Assembly (NCBI GenBank): GCA_963786955.1
Contig: CAWBAT010000007.1
Span: 96,001-160,000, forward strand
DNA from: an uncultured Acidimicrobiia bacterium
GTDB lineage: Bacteria; Acidobacteriota; Terriglobia; Versatilivoradales; Versatilivoraceae
DNA length: 64,000 bases
Direction: 5' to 3'
In this document: positions 47,935 through 53,789 of the stretch, piece after piece
Layout of the letters: each line of letters opens with the position of its first letter
Position numbering within the stretch: position 1 is the stretch's first letter
Translations under genes and position numbers: made by a program
Notes under the pieces: model-generated
What the model was told of the DNA's origin: nothing
The model's database searches: none
The model's input: the letters and a program-made list of their open reading frames with translations, nothing else

Positions 47935-48362
47935 ACTTTTTTCTTTCTGCGTTGAAACGCATGGTAGATGGAAATCTCAAGATCGATTCGCAATCGACCA
48001 AGCTGCAATAGAAACTCATGAGGAACACTTTCAAATTGGGCAGCTACGTTTAATTCAAGAACACCAAAGTCCAAGCATGCATTTTGGACCCCTGGAAATT
48101 TTCGAAGACGCTGAATTTCACGGTGGTGTTTATTGATTGCCGAATGAGCACGGCTAACGAGCGTGTGTAGTTTACCTTCTAAGCCATCGGGGCCTTCGAG
48201 ACGCATGTTTACCCCAGATGTAAGATAACGTTTCTTTAGCACCATGGATGAGGGATAAATTAACTGCCCACGCTTGTAAACCTTTACGACTGGGAGTGTT
48301 GTAGATCGAGCACACGCTTCGGCATCAAAATTCTTTCCAGAAATTCGAAAAATCACCGACAT
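47883..48362 (-). CDS. Hypothetical protein (DUF4279-like), integron gene cassette 1
   Basis: ATG 48362 lies 11 nt after GTTAGGG; the ORF reads through attC to its stop; AT-richer than its neighbours. Confidence 0.6.
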   Translation of the reverse strand: MSVIFRISGKNFDAEACARSTTLPVVKVYKRGQLIYPSSMVLKKRYLTSGVNMRLEGPDGLEGKLHTLVSRAHSAINKHHREIQRLRKFPGVQNACLDFGVLELNVAAQFESVPHEFLLQLGRLRIDLEISIYHAFQRRKKKVPNKTLHRTRKSGAPVS

Positions 48363-48373
48363 ATTTTTGTGGT

Positions 48374-48415
48374 CCCTAACATGGTATCGCTGTAGGCTCT
48401 TTAGCCTGCAGCCTA
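48374..48415 (-). other. Putative attI site
   Basis: CATGTTAGGG begins cassette 1 and is the exact complement of that cassette's R'' (CCCTAAC). No attC hairpin precedes it, and it lies downstream of the intI remnant. Confidence 0.55.
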
Positions 48416-48552
48416 TACTGAATTCACCCGTTTTCTTAAATACCTGGATCCTCTTGTGCTTCAGGTATTTGACTCCAATTTTGCCCTGAGCACCAGCGGG
48501 GGTAGGCGGCGCGCTGCAGCCTAACCTTCTGCAAGATAGGCTGCACGATATA

Positions 48553-48597
48553 TCAAAGGGCGTCTTCGGGGCTGCGAACGCCTCGACCACCCCGGTT
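48553..48597 (-). pseudogene. intI: 3' tail of integron integrase, co-oriented with the cassettes
   Basis: Translates as NRGGRGVRSPEDAL*, the characteristic IntI C-terminus; the rest of the gene is missing. Confidence 0.75.
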
Positions 48598-48672
48598 GAT
48601 CAAAAATTGCGTATTGGTCAAAGTTGAGATCCTCCGCGGCCCACTGAGCTATGAAAAAACTGGAAAACGTCT

Positions 48673-48762
48673 CGTGAGGCTTAGGCTTTGAGAAAGCCTG
48701 AAGCCTACAATAATTTCAAAGGGCTTAACATCATGTTGTAGGCCGGGTCACCCGACCCGGCG
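48673..48762. repeat. GTAG-type REP cluster
   Basis: Same families as 27930-28000 and 59925-59981. Confidence 0.7.
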
Positions 48763-48860
48763 CTGGAGATTGGACATTTTTCGAGAAGTGCAGCGGCAGG
48801 ATGCCGCTGCTTCACCTGAGTGCCCTGTAAATTAGGCAATATTGCGTATCAAGTTGTTTT

Positions 48861-49610
48861 TTAGAGATTAGAGGCATTGATTATCTCCACGTATTGTTTG
48901 ACCAGGAAAGGTGACAAGGCAGTGACTTGAGCGATGAACTCAAGGCTTTGATTGTGTTGGAAACAGGTTTTGACCCGATGGAAATCCTTCAGATAGCGGT
49001 CCACGGCCTTTTGTGAATGTTTGGTTTCGAGAGCGATCCGTTTCGGGTCTTTTTTGTCAAGGATGGCCTTTTTGACGATGGTTTTTTTGTGAGAGATACA
49101 AGAGCCAAAGTCCTGCAAACTGCCGCTGTGTGGGAGAGTGGTGTCATGTTCTTTTTCCCAGGCAGCCCGCAAGGAGGAAAGCCTCGAGTTTTGCCGCCAG
49201 CAAAAAAGGCCGATATCCCGCATGGTCAACAAGGCGCCTTGTTGATGGGCCTCGCAGCAAATACGGGCGATGGCCTTTTTAGCGATGGTTGTCATCGAGG
49301 AGCCCTTTGCCAGTTGCTCGACATCGGAAGGATCGACCAACGTCAACAGGACTGGGAGCAATTGCAGGTTCGGGCTGTTAGGTCTGGATTGTTGAGAGAC
49401 CGCATTCCAGACCATCTGGCCCGGCTGCAGATGATCTTTATGGGGCAACTGTTTTTCAACTAGCTCGACAATTTTTTCCGCCAAACGTTCGGCAAGCAAG
49501 GGGCCAAAAAGCTTGGGGCACTGGCTTTGCAAAAACCGCTGGATGGAAGGGCGGAGAAAGCGGTTTTGAGCAGAGCGGTAATGTTTTATGGATTGGGCCG
49601 GAGGATTCAC
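48861..49610 (-). CDS. DUF1670-domain protein (element gene B)
   Basis: PGQMVW, EAHQQGALLTMRDI, DFGSCISHK and KHSQKAVDRY; overlaps gene A (ATGA). Confidence 0.8.
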   Translation of the reverse strand: MNPPAQSIKHYRSAQNRFLRPSIQRFLQSQCPKLFGPLLAERLAEKIVELVEKQLPHKDHLQPGQMVWNAVSQQSRPNSPNLQLLPVLLTLVDPSDVEQLAKGSSMTTIAKKAIARICCEAHQQGALLTMRDIGLFCWRQNSRLSSLRAAWEKEHDTTLPHSGSLQDFGSCISHKKTIVKKAILDKKDPKRIALETKHSQKAVDRYLKDFHRVKTCFQHNQSLEFIAQVTALSPFLVKQYVEIINASNL

Positions 49611-50431
49611 TGGGACCTCCGGGTTGGGCGGCTCGGCAGATCGGCTGAGCTTTTTTTTAAGAAGCCCAAGAGTTCCTGCTGCCGGTGGACCGCCGGTTTG
49701 GCCGTCTGATGCAACTGGCGGAATTGCTCCACCAAAGGGGCGGACAAGCGAATCAGGAAAGCGGTGGTCGTCAGATCAAAGCCATGTTGGAGCAAGGCGG
49801 CACAGCGTTTGAATTTTTCCACGTAGTTGGCCACTGAAGAAACGCTGTGATGAGAATGCAAGGCGATGTCGGAATACTCTTTGCCTTCCAGCCACAGTGA
49901 GACAATCAGGCGGCGATGGGTTACAGCTCGACCGATGTCTTTGACGGTGGAACGAAGAGGCGGCACCAGATTCTGCTGGCGCAATGCGGCCAAGTCGCCA
50001 ACCAAAGTGCGCAGGCCGCAATTAAACAACAGGGCCAGATCCTCCAAAGTCAGCAGACCCCCTTGCTGGAAGGCTTCTTCGGCAACTCGCATCAGACGAT
50101 GTTGCCGCAGGGCCGGGATGGTTTGCCGCTGCTGGATCTGGTTGTCTTCCTCTTTATCCAGCAGGGTGAGGGTGGCCAGCTTCTGAGCAGCTTGGGACAG
50201 CGGAACACCGGGAGGCACAGAGGCATCCACTACCATGAGTTGAATCTGTCCGGGCTGCACAGTGGTTGAGTTGTCGAACAAGGGTCCATAAAGTTCATGG
50301 ACTTTTTCGACCATGATCTGGGCTTCGAAAGGGGAACAATTCAGCCCCCGCTGCATGGCGGTCTTAAATTGAGTGTCAATGGATTTAGCACTGATGCGGT
50401 CCCAACGTTGCAAACTGGTGTTGTTGATCAA
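49607..50431 (-). CDS. DUF1670-domain protein (element gene A)
   Basis: PGQI, RLMRVAEEAFQQGGLLTLEDLA, PLRSTVKDIG, THRR and HHSVSSVANY. TTG start after AGGAG matches the GTG start of copy 2. Confidence 0.8.
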   Translation of the reverse strand: MINNTSLQRWDRISAKSIDTQFKTAMQRGLNCSPFEAQIMVEKVHELYGPLFDNSTTVQPGQIQLMVVDASVPPGVPLSQAAQKLATLTLLDKEEDNQIQQRQTIPALRQHRLMRVAEEAFQQGGLLTLEDLALLFNCGLRTLVGDLAALRQQNLVPPLRSTVKDIGRAVTHRRLIVSLWLEGKEYSDIALHSHHSVSSVANYVEKFKRCAALLQHGFDLTTTAFLIRLSAPLVEQFRQLHQTAKPAVHRQQELLGFLKKSSADLPSRPTRRSQ

Positions 50432-50456
50432 GAGGGGCTCCTGCTGTCGAAATGAG

Positions 50457-50517
50457 TTCTCTTGCCCCTGGCATTCCAGTCGCCCTTCGGGCTCCTTCCC
50501 TGCCAGGGGCAAGAGAA
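50457..50517 (-). ncRNA. Putative structured leader (RNA or ssDNA) of DUF1670 element, copy 1
   Basis: 17-bp perfect stem enclosing a core that is identical to the copy 2 core (GGAAGGAGCCCGAAGGGCGACTGGAA). Confidence 0.5.
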
Positions 50518-50540
50518 TAAGCAATATTGCACAACTATAA

Positions 50541-50910
50541 GGGCGATAGAATTTTAGCCCAGGGCCAGCGAGGAGCAGGAACTCCTCGCGCCGCCCTGGG
50601 TCAGCATTTCAACCAATATTATCTCCTCTCCCCCCGAATTGCTCGCCTTTCGGCGATTCGGGGGAGAGGATGGGAGTGGGGGGCTTTCGTTGCCAAATCC
50701 TGAATCATGCGTTTCGTTGTGGTTGCAGTGTTTGTCGGAACGAAGCATGAGTCTTCGACCTCGACACCTTCTGACCCCCTCACCCTCGCCCTCTCCCCCA
50801 ACACGAAAAAGGTGTTGGGGGAGAGGGTAGGAATTCGTGAGAACGCTGACCCAGGGCGGCCGCAGCGGCTCCTCCGCTGCGGCGCCCTGGGCTAGAATCC
50901 AACGCCCCGA
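50541..50910. repeat. Composite REP/BIME-like spacer with inverted CCCAGGGC..GCCCTGGG REPs and CCCTCTCCCCC..GGGGGAGAGG hairpins
   Basis: The two halves are imperfect inverted repeats; the same REP occurs uninterrupted at 63714-63775. Confidence 0.75.
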
Positions 50911-50933
50911 TAGTTGTGCAATATTGCTTGTAG

Positions 50934-50988
50934 GTTTCTCTGGGGCGTGGAAGGAGCCCGAAGGGCGACTGGAATGCCCCAGAGAAAC
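50934..50988 (+). ncRNA. Putative structured leader of DUF1670 element, copy 2
   Basis: Stem GTTTCTCTGGGGCG/TGCCCCAGAGAAAC differs in sequence from copy 1 but is still paired around the identical core. Confidence 0.5.
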
Positions 50989-51016
50989 TGCGCAATTTCA
51001 GGTCGAGGAGGCTCTC

Positions 51017-51838
51017 GTGATCAATAACACTAGCATCCAACGATGGGACCGAATCACAGCCAAGTCCATCGATGCCCAATTCAGCCAGGCCATGCAACAG
51101 GGGCTGAACTGTTCGCCCTTCGAAGCCCAGATCATGGTGGAAAAGGTCCATGAGCTCTACGGTCCTCTGTTTGACTCCTCCACCTCCGTTCAGCCCGGTC
51201 AGATTCAAACCGTGGTGGTCGATGCCTCAGTGCCTCCTGGAATCCCTCTGGCTCAGGCAGTTCAGAAACGAGTGACCGTCACCTTGTTCGATCCCACCCA
51301 GGATGTGGAAACTCAAAAAACCGGAGGGATACCGGCTCTGCGTCAAAAACGCCTCTGTCGAATCTGCGAAGAGGCCTTCCAACAGGGAGGCTTGTTTACC
51401 TTAGAAGATCTCTCCGTCCTATTCAATTGTGGGGTCCGAACCTTGGTGGGAGATCTGGCTGCATTGCGTCAGAAAAAAATCATTCCCCCCTTGCGCTCTA
51501 CCGTCCAAGACATCGGCCGGGCCATTACTCACCGCCGCCTCATCGTTTCCCTCTGGTTGGAAGGTCGAGAGTATACGACATTGCGGCCCGAACTCATCAT
51601 GCGGTAGGGTCGGTCAGCAACTACGTCGAGAAATTCAAACGCTGTGTGGCCCTGCTGGCTAATGGGTTTGATGTCCCCACCACGGCTTTCCTGGTGCGGC
51701 TCTCTGCGCCCTTGACCGAGGAATTCCGCCAGCTCTATGCGTCGTCAAAACCAGCCCTCCACTGACAAGTGAGCTGGACAATTTCCTGAAAAAAAGCCCG
51801 CTCGTTCAGCCGCCCGCCGCGGCCGAAGGTTGCGATGA
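51017..51838 (+). pseudogene. DUF1670 gene A, copy 2
   Basis: GTG start after GAGGAGG; frameshift at ~51575 and premature TGA at 51763-65 relative to copy 1. Confidence 0.75.
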
Positions 51839-52580
51839 TGCCCCAACCTCAATCCGTCAAACACTACCGCTCGGCAGGCCGCCGCTTTCTGGAAGCCTCC
51901 ATCCAGCAGTTTCGAACTCAATGCCCCAAGCTCTTCGGCTCCCTACTGGCTCAACGATTAGCCGAGAAACTGGTCGAACTGGTTGAAAAATAGCTGCCCG
52001 CTAAAAATCATTTGCGCCCCGGGCAGATCGTCTGGAATGCCGTCTCCATTCACTCCCGGCCCGACAGCCCCCGCCTCCAGTTGGTCCCCGTGATCCTGAC
52101 GCTGATCTCCCCGTCTGATATCGAACAACTGGCCCAGGGCACCCGCATGTCCGCCATCGCTCAAAAGGCCGTCGCCCGTATCTGCCGCGAGGCCCAGCAA
52201 CAGGGAGCCTTGCTGACCATGCGAGACATCGGCCTGTTCACTTGGCGGCAAAACTCCGCTCTCTCCAGTCTGCGCCTCGCTTGGGAAACACACAACGCCA
52301 CCACCTTGCCTCACAGCGGCAGCTCCAAGACTTTGGCTCTTGCATCTCCCACAAGACCACCATCGTGCACAAAGCCATCTTGGAGAAGAAGGATCCCAAA
52401 ATCGTGGCCTTAGAAACCAAACATTCTCAAAAAGCCGTCGATCGTTATTTAAAGGATTTTCATCGCGTTCAAACCTGTTATCAGCACAATCCCAATCTGG
52501 ATTTCATCTGCCAGGTCACCGCTATGTCTCCGCACCTGGTCAAACAATACCTACACCTCATTAATGAAATCGAAGCCTAA
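51835..52580 (+). pseudogene. DUF1670 gene B, copy 2
   Basis: In-frame TAG at 51991-93 (CAG in copy 1) and a frameshift at ~52324. Confidence 0.75.
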
Positions 52581-52757
52581 CGAATGCTTAAAAAATTACT
52601 TGACACGCAAAATTGCCTAACGATGGGGCTCTCGAAGGAGGAAGCGGCCTCCTGCCGCTTCATAAATGCCCAAACCCCTAGGCGCCAGCTAGCTGGCGCC
52701 GGCCAAGGCGGCAGCACGCTGCCGCACTCCAAGGGACTCACCTAAAATATTCCCCCA

Positions 52758-53789
52758 TTAAAACACTTTCCAGTAAGATCCGAAGTTTGCTTTTGATTTA
52801 GCCTGAATGACTTCAAATAGTTCACTGGGCCTCCAGGAACGCGGCGGGCTGCCATGTCCTGTCAGTTCGTCCAGAGTCTTGAGCACGCTGGTCTGCAGCC
52901 CTTTGAGATGGTAACCACCCTCCAATAAGAAAACCACTTTCCCGTCACAGACGTCCTGGGCAAGCGAAAGAATGGTTTGCGTGATCCCCGCAAATCCCGC
53001 GGGGGTCACTTCCATTCCAGCAAGAGGATCTTCAACGTAAGCGTCATAGCCCGCAGAGACAAGGATAAGATCGGGACGGTAGGATTTCCCAATCGGCGCG
53101 ATGATCTTGTCGAATACTAGATTATACGTGTCATCACTGGAATGGGCTGGAAGAGGAAAATTTATAGTAAACCCGACGCCTTCTTTTTCGCCGATTTCAG
53201 GGAAATTCCCTGTCCCCGGATAAAACGGAAATTGGTGTGTCGAGACATATAGGACATCGGAGCGGTTATAGAAGGCATTCTGCGTCCCATTGCCATGGTG
53301 TACGTCAAAATCAATGACCAAGATTCTTGAAAGCCGGTATTTTTCCAAGGCATACGCCGCTCCTATGGCTACATTGCTAAAGAGGCAAAAACCCATACTC
53401 CGGTCAGGTTCCGCGTGATGTCCCGGTGGACGTACGAACCCAAAACCATTTTGGATTTCCCCGGCTTCGACCGCATCGATCAGAACCAACAGACTCCCTA
53501 CCGCATGCAGAGCCACTTCATAACTTTCAGCGCTGGCAATGGTATCTGCATCCAGCTGGGTACGAGGTTTCCCGGATGTCTGTTGAATGGTGCGGATATA
53601 AGATGTCGGGTGAATGAGCCGGAGTTCTTCTTCTGTAGCGCGCCGTGGCTTGAAATGAACCAAATGATCGTGGTGCCCATAGGTCCGAAGACCCTCTCCG
53701 ACAGCAATCAGTCTCTCTTTTCTCTCAGGATGGTAGAGTCCGGTGTCATGGAGCAGAAACATATCATCGTGGACAATTCCTGTTGTCAT
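52758..53789 (-). CDS. Histone deacetylase-family (AcuC/AphA-like) protein
   Basis: HPE, RPPGHHA, GFC, DFDVHHGNGTQ, SAGYD and LEGGY. Confidence 0.93.
   Translation of the reverse strand: MTTGIVHDDMFLLHDTGLYHPERKERLIAVGEGLRTYGHHDHLVHFKPRRATEEELRLIHPTSYIRTIQQTSGKPRTQLDADTIASAESYEVALHAVGSLLVLIDAVEAGEIQNGFGFVRPPGHHAEPDRSMGFCLFSNVAIGAAYALEKYRLSRILVIDFDVHHGNGTQNAFYNRSDVLYVSTHQFPFYPGTGNFPEIGEKEGVGFTINFPLPAHSSDDTYNLVFDKIIAPIGKSYRPDLILVSAGYDAYVEDPLAGMEVTPAGFAGITQTILSLAQDVCDGKVVFLLEGGYHLKGLQTSVLKTLDELTGHGSPPRSWRPSELFEVIQAKSKANFGSYWKVF

Follow-up and report, generated by a model that had tools for sequence, protein, structure and literature searches.

What does a long hairpin do at the end of a mobile element, and in which nucleic acid does it fold? 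The question is raised by a 64,000-nucleotide stretch of the genome of an uncultured bacterium (contig CAWBAT010000007.1; the whole stretch analysed is called the window here). The window holds two mutually inverted copies of a mobile element, built like an insertion sequence (IS), that carries a pair of DUF1670 genes. Copy 1 is intact and copy 2 is decayed, and in both a hairpin with a purine-rich core lies between the left end of the element and the start codon of its first DUF1670 gene, gene A. We find that this fold is under selection for pairing, that it is a portable module kept by unrelated insertion sequences, and that it is absent from Rfam. The hairpins and their parts are:

50457..50517, minus strand: leader hairpin of copy 1, a 17-bp perfect outer stem around the purine-rich core
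50457-50473 and 50501-50517: the arms of that hairpin, 17 nt each and 100% complementary
50475..50499, minus strand: the 25-nt family core, GGAAGGAG-CCC-GAA-GGG-CGACTGGA
50934..50988, plus strand: leader hairpin of the decayed copy 2, with a 14-bp outer stem that includes one G·T pair and an identical core at 50949-50973
within 50934-50959 and 50963-50988: the arms of the copy 2 hairpin
50470-50499 (minus strand) and 50949-50978 (plus strand), and 214894-214923 on contig C5 of the same genome: the places of the 30-mer GGAAGGAGCCCGAAGGGCGACTGGAATGCC

The core is laid out as a 3x3 GGA/GGA internal loop, two Watson-Crick pairs, a tandem G·A, a 4-bp mini-stem and a G-N-A triloop. The initial annotation, made from the letters of the window, had described both hairpins at these places with an identical 30-nt core, and stem arms that differ between the copies yet stay paired. 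Both observations are borne out. The 30-mer occurs exactly three times in the 5.65-Mb genome (0 times in a reversed control), the third copy being the one on contig C5, and the arms of copies 1 and 2 are unlike in sequence with their pairing kept. Folded as the sense strand, the hairpins reach -50.7 kcal/mol (copy 1, z -5.5) and -54.2 kcal/mol (copy 2, z -4.6), and none of 200 shuffles folded as well in either case; the opposite strands fold slightly worse (-46.1 and -44.8 kcal/mol, z -4.8 and -4.3). Each hairpin stands 25 nt ahead of its gene A; in copy 1, 14 nt separate it from the ribosome-binding site. A covariance model (R1) gives the copy 1 hairpin 60.5 bits and the copy 2 hairpin 65 bits. 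When the genome was scanned with this model, it returned the three DUF1670 copies and one weak match (26.7 bits), a hairpin of the repetitive extragenic palindromic (REP)-like kind with the centre GGA-GGGC-GTA-GCCC-GGA.

A hairpin stands at the equivalent leader place in about 62 of 80 DUF1670 loci that were found through their proteins (counted by eye); the 80 loci kept in this set span many bacterial phyla and include a few archaeal bins. It lies 17-65 nt upstream of the gene A start. Its stems are 9-27 bp long and unrelated in sequence between loci, and its centre is conserved, with three main types. Type 1 is the core of the window, with the mini-stem CCC/GGG or GGC/GCC; type 2, from Bacteroidota, reads [GNA][GC][GNA][GGC][GNA][GCC][GNA][GC][GNA]; type 3, from Verrucomicrobia, reads GGAGGCGAGC-GTA-GCGAGCCGGA. 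All three have symmetric G-N-A/G-N-A or GA/GA internal loops and a G-N-A end loop closed by a C-G pair. In one DUF1670 leader (L009) a long perfect stem remains, but a TTCC loop has replaced the conserved core.

Covariation was examined in two sets of sequences. For the first, metagenome contigs were scanned with a pattern of the core that left six mini-stem positions and the middle loop base free; the fixed positions are uninformative and the free positions carry the test. At least 119 stretches matched and three further stretches came from viral contigs; the matches listed total 123 and hold 114 distinct hairpins, to which the counts below refer. The free inner triplets are fully complementary in 114 of the 123 matches, with six different arm sequences. 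The outer stem, mostly of 12-18 bp, directly abuts the core in 103 of the 114 hairpins, and the 1659 stem pairs of the 114 are 93.2% Watson-Crick, 6.0% G·T and 0.8% other. In a gap-free alignment of 110 of these sequences (14+25+14 columns), 94.2% of 2200 cells pair, compared with 58.7% in the shuffled control and 32-46% in controls with a slid partner. Double changes occur at all 14 outer pairs and at the 3 free inner pairs, and the covariation score is 0.849 against 0.169, a value reached by none of 500 shuffles. The second set comprises 25 protein-found DUF1670 leaders, aligned with a model that leans toward its own structure; here 89.2% of cells pair against 61.7% after shuffling, double changes occur at 17 of 20 pairs, and the score is 0.711 against 0.201, again with none of 500 shuffles reaching it. 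The loop positions are nearly invariant in these 25 protein-selected leaders, and invariant by construction in the pattern-selected set. The fold is under selection for pairing. A functional single-stranded structure, in RNA or in single-stranded DNA, had been proposed for it initially, with a lack of covariation in a larger alignment as the result that would speak against it. Covariation in the large alignments is overwhelming, and the proposal stands.

The module is absent from Rfam and uncatalogued. Window positions 48000-53500, searched against Rfam 15 at E<=1, gave just five microRNA-precursor matches (22-29 bits, gathering thresholds 55-70), and ten related loci (34.7 kb, E<=0.1) gave just mir-4524 (27 bits against 68). 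A literature search found no paper linking the leaders of IS3-family transposases to a covarying RNA motif, and, among the papers listed for the core sequence GGAAGGAG with transposase, none that was relevant as judged by title and the start of the abstract.

Which genes does the module accompany? A site specific to the DUF1670 element is not supported, for elements of the IS3 and IS21 types share the core, and it also precedes tyrosine-recombinase genes. Of the 123 matches, 4 are followed by a DUF1670 gene A; another 104, with 120 nt or more of sequence downstream, are not, and 15 are too short to judge. Pfam was run on the 105 longest same-strand open reading frames after the core. Of these, 27 matched HTH_Tnp_1 (IS3-type OrfA), 2 Phage_int_SAM_1 (tyrosine recombinases), 2 HTH_28 alone, 1 DUF1670, 1 several helix-turn-helix (HTH) families and 1 DDE_3, the last with its match upstream of the core; the others are unassigned short fragments or fall below the Pfam cut-off. 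A single similarity cluster that contains IS3 OrfA frames takes up 59 of the 105. Most of the matches are in leaders of the IS3 type. Two named records show the setting: on a Variovorax plasmid a gene annotated 'IS3 family transposase' follows 10 nt after the hairpin (69 bits), and in Burkholderia cepacia ATCC 25416 it lies (56 bits) upstream of IS21-like istA/istB. A match was found in 11 of 151 genomes sampled from the window's phylum, the window's own included, and 5 of 10 downstream frames carry HTH_21/rve/rve_3. In five Bacteroidales genomes the Bacteroidota core variant was confined to DUF1670 loci (6 places, 4 genomes). It was found in 4 of 401 sampled genomes of that phylum, few cases, and no DUF1670 gene stands beside it in any of those 4; one of them, L232, overlaps the 3' end of an IS3 OrfB. 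Another of the 4, L235, has one mismatch and no stem and is probably due to chance. The module is portable, not private to DUF1670, and is kept by unrelated insertion sequences at a distance of a few tens to ~170 nt from one terminus.

That terminus can be either one. Among the matches listed, 30 opposite-strand frames end within 220 nt after the core; these are the C-termini of 6 IstB, 5 rve-type and 1 DUF1670 proteins, 1 IS110 fragment and 17 unassigned frames. At a right-end copy beside a DUF1670 gene B (L132), an end-type palindrome and an AT-rich TGATATTAT block lie outside the hairpin, mirroring the left end. By gene layout, on which this rule rests rather than on mapped termini, the purine-rich strand points inward from whichever end is closer. 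The only outward cases are two loci with flipped loops, L111 and L166. In both, the IS3-type leader arms are as in normal relatives and the 25-nt core is inverted between them, which looks like an inversion across the inverted repeat, a natural flipped-loop variant. Another locus (L088) has the core and inner stem tandemly duplicated, with the two cores 49 nt apart.

The mismatches identify the strand that folds. We counted G·T and A·C alike, as isolated mismatches between Watson-Crick pairs in 112 of the listed hairpins, and found on the purine-rich strand 26 G·T or T·G, 1 A·C, 3 G·G, 2 G·A and 1 C·T. Since an A·C on this strand is a G·T on the other, the excess of G·T over A·C means that selection for pairing acts on the purine-rich strand alone. 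This rules out an antisense RNA, and likewise a double-stranded site or a symmetric cruciform. The purine-rich strand is the folding strand and, in the element of the window, the sense strand of the gene. The core is also sense to an IS3-OrfA-like frame in 50 of 52 cases among the matches listed. The strand asymmetry fits RNA; it fits a single strand of DNA less specifically.

Our leading candidate, held tentatively, is a fold in the RNA of inward transcripts that acts in cis and decides the fate of the mRNA. The module has a long stem of arbitrary sequence bearing a conserved purine-rich rod. The rod combines symmetric G-N-A/G-N-A internal loops with a few G-C pairs, and its triloop is a G-N-A closed by C. 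On this reading the module would fold in the RNA of transcripts that start at the element end or read in through it. At the left end the gene A mRNA would begin, or nearly begin, with a highly stable structure, where the fold, as a cap or a roadblock, could set the amount of protein through mRNA stability or ribosome access; at right ends it could stabilise an inward antisense transcript. As one core serves unrelated transposases, it would be expected to act through the general machinery of the host and not through the element's own proteins. We favour RNA because the module has the position of a transcribed leader wherever a gene follows, because promoter-like words stand ahead of it (also at one right end) and it carries AAGGAG(G), and because G·T pairs are frequent and other mismatches rare. 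In relatives, blocks that look like promoters by eye lie just upstream of the hairpin, for example TGATATAAT, TTGACA-17-GATAAG; a simple promoter scan called no sigma-70-like site at the left ends. The AAGGAG(G) exposed in the core resembles a Shine-Dalgarno site. Metatranscriptome contigs of four runs, which show no starts, strand or level, were compared with positions 48600-50750; three runs cover the element at depth 2-10 and one covers the hairpin, with DNA carry-over as a possible source.

Two other roles at the RNA or protein level were rejected. A Rho-independent terminator would call for a T-rich tail, and at least 6 T in the 10 nt past the stem were present in just 6 of 107 listed hairpins; no terminator-like site was called at the hairpins of the window. 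A core that codes for a peptide is contradicted by the reading frames, which differ between DUF1670 and IS3 contexts, and by arm swaps, which alter the peptide.

Several observations weigh against an RNA leader. The 5' end of the transcript is not visible from the metatranscriptome contigs. Bacteroidota variants are often without the GGAG word, which weakens the Shine-Dalgarno idea or limits it to some lineages. In 23 of the 27 IS3 OrfA cases, largely of one lineage, no stop interrupts the frame within the hairpin and an ATG stands 3-51 nt ahead of it, and in the remaining 4 the hairpin contains a stop and precedes the start; in IS3 copies the hairpin may be translated rather than form part of an untranslated region. 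About 12 of ~80 placeable matches lie beyond the 3' end of the last gene and on the other strand, a placement that leaves no downstream gene to regulate in that orientation, and the Bacteroidota-type (type II) core of L232 overlaps coding sequence at an OrfB 3' end. About 18 of the 80 DUF1670 loci, a few of them cut by contig ends, are without the module, which is therefore dispensable. Finally, a C-closed G-N-A triloop, tandem G·A pairs and GGA/GGA loops are classic stabilisers of single-stranded DNA hairpins.

Structured leaders of transposase mRNAs are known from IS10 and IS50 (fold-back inhibition) and from IS200 (a leader stem-loop); they are family-specific and bury the ribosome-binding site. 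Like them, the module is a stable structure that precedes the first gene within ~100 nt of the left end, with a presumed limiting effect on expression. Unlike them, it stops those 14 nt short of the ribosome-binding site, has a conserved non-Watson-Crick core, is common to several unrelated families and is also found at right ends. Stabilisers at mRNA 5' ends, such as 5'-terminal stem-loops and the STAB-SD of cryIIIA, offer a second comparison. With these the module shares a stable 5' hairpin and a Shine-Dalgarno-like word that no start codon follows; the word is, however, missing in many Bacteroidota variants. IS leader structures are usually private to a family, whereas here one fold extends over IS3, IS21, DUF1670 and recombinase elements of many phyla. 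This sharing points to an undescribed common interaction, the partner of which could be the translation, RNA-decay or replication machinery of the host. At ~50-80 nt, the module is a compact and easily synthesised object with which to study how mobile elements tune themselves.

The main rival, though rather unlikely, is that the hairpin forms in single-stranded DNA, on the strand that has its 5' end at the nearer terminus and is displaced when replication enters this end of a copy-out/paste-in figure-eight intermediate. It would then be a single-strand origin (a priming site) or a dock for a host replication or repair factor. Reading inward from either end, which an RNA leader explains poorly, fits this scheme. 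So does the identity of the families that Pfam can name, IS3 and IS21, both of which are circle-forming, copy-out/paste-in families. The excess of G·T over A·C also fits a DNA hairpin of the top strand, and stable DNA mini-hairpins characteristically have G-N-A triloops and sheared G·A pairs. The single-strand origins of rolling-circle plasmids and G4-type initiation signals are likewise orientation-dependent, have conserved loops and act on one displaced strand; the module has a regular orientation and conserved loops. In copy-out/paste-in transposition the figure-eight intermediate is converted by host replication, according to passages of PMC7780238. A replicative stage is, however, not evidenced for DUF1670 or tyrosine-recombinase elements. 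The 6.0% of G·T against 0.8% of other mismatches looks more RNA-like, an uncalibrated judgement; the orientation rule is inferred from gene layout; and the promoter-like blocks stand just outside the hairpin at both kinds of end.

The nearest DNA counterparts are the subterminal hairpins of IS200/IS605 and of REP sequences with their associated transposases (REP/RAYT; PMC3333891). These are imperfect, strand-specific, near the ends and linked to REP-like genomic hairpins, as the module is. IS200/IS605 elements need an HUH Y1 transposase and hairpins at both ends on one strand, whereas the module occurs as one hairpin per element. Pfam found no HUH protein in the element of the window, and its right end has just the 10-nt palindrome given below.

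The DNA scheme can be widened to a new portable class of end-proximal element, a single-strand origin or handling site on the displaced strand and, for DUF1670, equally a mimic of the target hairpin; we consider this unlikely. If it were true, copy-out/paste-in insertion sequences and the enzyme-less DUF1670 elements would plug in the module, at either end, to have the excised strand copied.

A third reading turns on the element's own proteins and on where it inserts. The features that bear on this are:

48829..50540, minus strand: DUF1670 mobile element copy 1, ~1.71 kb, its ends uncertain by ~3 nt
49607..50431, minus strand: gene A (DUF1670, 274 aa), with a TTG start at 50429-50431 and an AGGAG Shine-Dalgarno sequence at 50438-50442
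48861..49610, minus strand: gene B (DUF1670 paralogue, 249 aa)
50521..50530: left-end palindrome GCAATATTGC, 10 nt, also at the right end (48836-48845) and in copy 2 (50918-50927)
50912..52621, plus strand: DUF1670 element copy 2, decayed, with stops and frameshifts in both genes
48822-48825 (GCCC on the plus strand) and 50541-50544: the arms of the small target hairpin split by copy 1
50546..50902: ~370-bp repeat unit (a pair of REP-like hairpins) between the element copies, 357 nt of it in the window

The DUF1670 unit is a mobile element and behaves as an insertion sequence, since near-identical copies have unrelated flanks, empty sites exist, a GAT is duplicated around one copy and the unit is multi-copy elsewhere. 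Copy 1 and the copy on contig C5 share 99.94% identity over 1717 nt and stand in unrelated surroundings, and other genomes hold up to seven DUF1670 elements each. Where the window element has the palindrome GCAATATTGC, relatives have TGCCATATGGCA. Both genes match Pfam DUF1670 (PF07900; E 5e-39 for gene A and 1e-47 for gene B), and the only further Pfam signal in the element's proteins is a weak HTH_28. The gene A start was placed by the conserved MINN N-terminus of relatives. Homologues of protein A number 585 of 3673 candidates at E<=0.001; most of the best 120 lie on contigs of 1-2.5 kb, as repeats do, and 107 of 159 candidate stretches (one genome per species) encode relatives. A structural model of protein A (pLDDT 72.5) predicts a winged helix (about residues 100-165) followed by two HTH units (about 170-264). 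No catalytic fold was seen in the model, whose best structural matches have Z<=6.5; a PDB profile search with protein A gave nothing below E 0.7, and sequence searches gave nothing beyond DUF1670 and the weak HTH. The literature search found no publication on DUF1670 or PF07900. In the decayed copy 2, gene A has a frameshift near 51585-51600, and gene B an in-frame TAG at ~51991 and a frameshift near 52320. It is a pseudogene pair, yet its leader hairpin is still paired, with new stem arms.

Each of the three copies in this genome occupies the loop of a small GC hairpin, and empty sites are available for two of them. For the target of copy 1, an uninterrupted paralogous site on contig C6 reads GCCC-TGA-GGGC. 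Copy 2 sits in the loop of a GCCCC-GAT(A)-GGGGC hairpin (arms 50904-50908 and 52625-52629), with GAT duplicated on either side (50909-50911 and 52622-52624), and the copy on contig C5 is flanked by CGCC and GGCG. The empty target sites are supplied by uninterrupted copies of the repeat unit (C6:650461-650838 and C5:1306086-1306460). Tips of the form CGCCC...GGGC are part of the target hairpin and not of the element. At 20 or more other DUF1670 loci the flanks of the element ends form complementary arms of 4-17 bp and varied sequence, and metatranscriptome contigs from other organisms have the same element ends joined to other flanks, which start at 48822 and 50545. Insertion into a loop is proven for this genome by the empty sites; from the flanks it appears to be a habit of the family. 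Metatranscriptome joints of 48813 to 50587 and to 50618 were not taken for empty sites (repeat-rich flanks, 92% likeness). We also compared the flanks of IS3 copies in L217, L219 and L220, where hairpin-loop targeting is not evident either way.

Insertion into REP-type palindromes is described, in passages of PMC1525189, for IS1397, ISKpn1 and IS621. On that account they are the nearest parallel for the target choice of the carrier element, not for its leader, and their enzymes belong to the IS3 or IS110 family, whereas DUF1670 protein A is without a recognisable catalytic domain. The module is of interest as a first handle on DUF1670 elements, which insert precisely into hairpin loops without a recognisable DNA-cutting enzyme.

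With such targets, the leader could serve the DUF1670 proteins of the element itself as a dock or a decoy: these would recognise small hairpin loops as places of insertion, and the leader tip would mimic such a place, for autoregulation or for assembly of the transposition complex. We regard this as improbable. The loop insertions in this genome and the complementary flanks at 20 or more further loci speak for it, as does a protein A modelled as winged-helix and HTH domains, and the GCCC-GAA-GGGC tip has arms equal to those of the copy 1 target. A resemblance of the leader to GCCC-NNN-GGGC targets had in fact been noted at the outset; the tip does have the same form as the occupied hairpins, but in this genome only, the tip arms being unlike the target arms in the other DUF1670 families inspected. 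Moreover, the same core serves IS3, IS21 and tyrosine-recombinase elements with unrelated proteins, the words shared between leader and target show no enrichment of own over other pairs, and those ~18 DUF1670 loci do without the module altogether.

A guide in the manner of a bridge RNA, in which a segment of the leader pairs with the target or with the element ends, is highly improbable. What suggests it is a structured element in the first-gene leader of a minimal mobile element whose target is a defined small hairpin. Bridge RNAs of IS110/IS1111 elements pair with target and donor DNA through variable loops, as Durrant et al. (2024; PMC11208160) describe. The module is similar in being a structured non-coding element with internal loops in the leader of a recombinase gene, and some IS110 elements target REP hairpins. 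Unlike a bridge RNA, it has invariant loops and freely variable stems, the reverse of what a guide needs, and no leader-target match: in 12 other DUF1670 families the longest word shared with the target flanks averaged 6.4 nt for the own leader and 6.3 nt for the leaders of other elements. The target-matching guide that had been suggested can be set aside on these grounds; the window copies, which fall outside the end pattern of this test, were compared by eye only. Copies that are 99.9% identical occupy different targets (GCCC/GGGC and CGCC/GGCG), and the core is present in DDE transposons as well. Its neighbours are DUF1670, HTH_Tnp_1/rve, IstB and Phage_int_SAM_1 genes, not a DEDD recombinase; one opposite-strand DEDD_Tnp_IS110 fragment (L116) does not fit the leader arrangement.

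Least credible is an antisense RNA or other structure of the opposite strand, read initially as a C(UUCG)G tetraloop: that strand folds well too, as in any inverted repeat it must, but G·T over A·C at 26:1 favours the purine-rich strand, genes run 50 sense to 2 antisense, and UUCG arises only from the GAA variant of a loop that in relatives is G-N-A with N = A, G, T or C.

The module lacks the tested defining features of family-specific leaders, bridge RNAs and IS200/IS605 hairpins. It may be a structured element at IS ends, with a real chance that it is something further removed from known systems.

Several observations concern the repeats into which the elements insert. On contig C5 near 1306086, an uninterrupted repeat unit reads GCCC-TGTAAATTAG-GCG at the target hairpin. 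This contains the first ~10 nt of the element right end, with the element itself gone, and may be a footprint of excision or recombination. Two other copies of the unit are interrupted, at C4:199404-201474 by ~1.7 kb and at C5:181406-182286 by ~0.5 kb (L236 and L237); no clear terminal repeats or transposase frame were seen within these interruptions. A REP-like family, CCCAGGG[CT]...[GA]CCCTGGG, occurs at 33 places genome-wide, often paired ~140-300 nt apart. Some of its members (C5:1463621, C8:353083 and C8:619798) have a GGA-GGGC-GAA/GTA-GCCC-GGA centre like a minimal leader core. In two metatranscriptome runs the summed depth over the hairpin-rich flank at 48744-48815 (gcagcggca...tgccgctgc) rises to 192 and 58, far more than over the body of the element; this flank is a repeat common to other organisms in those samples.

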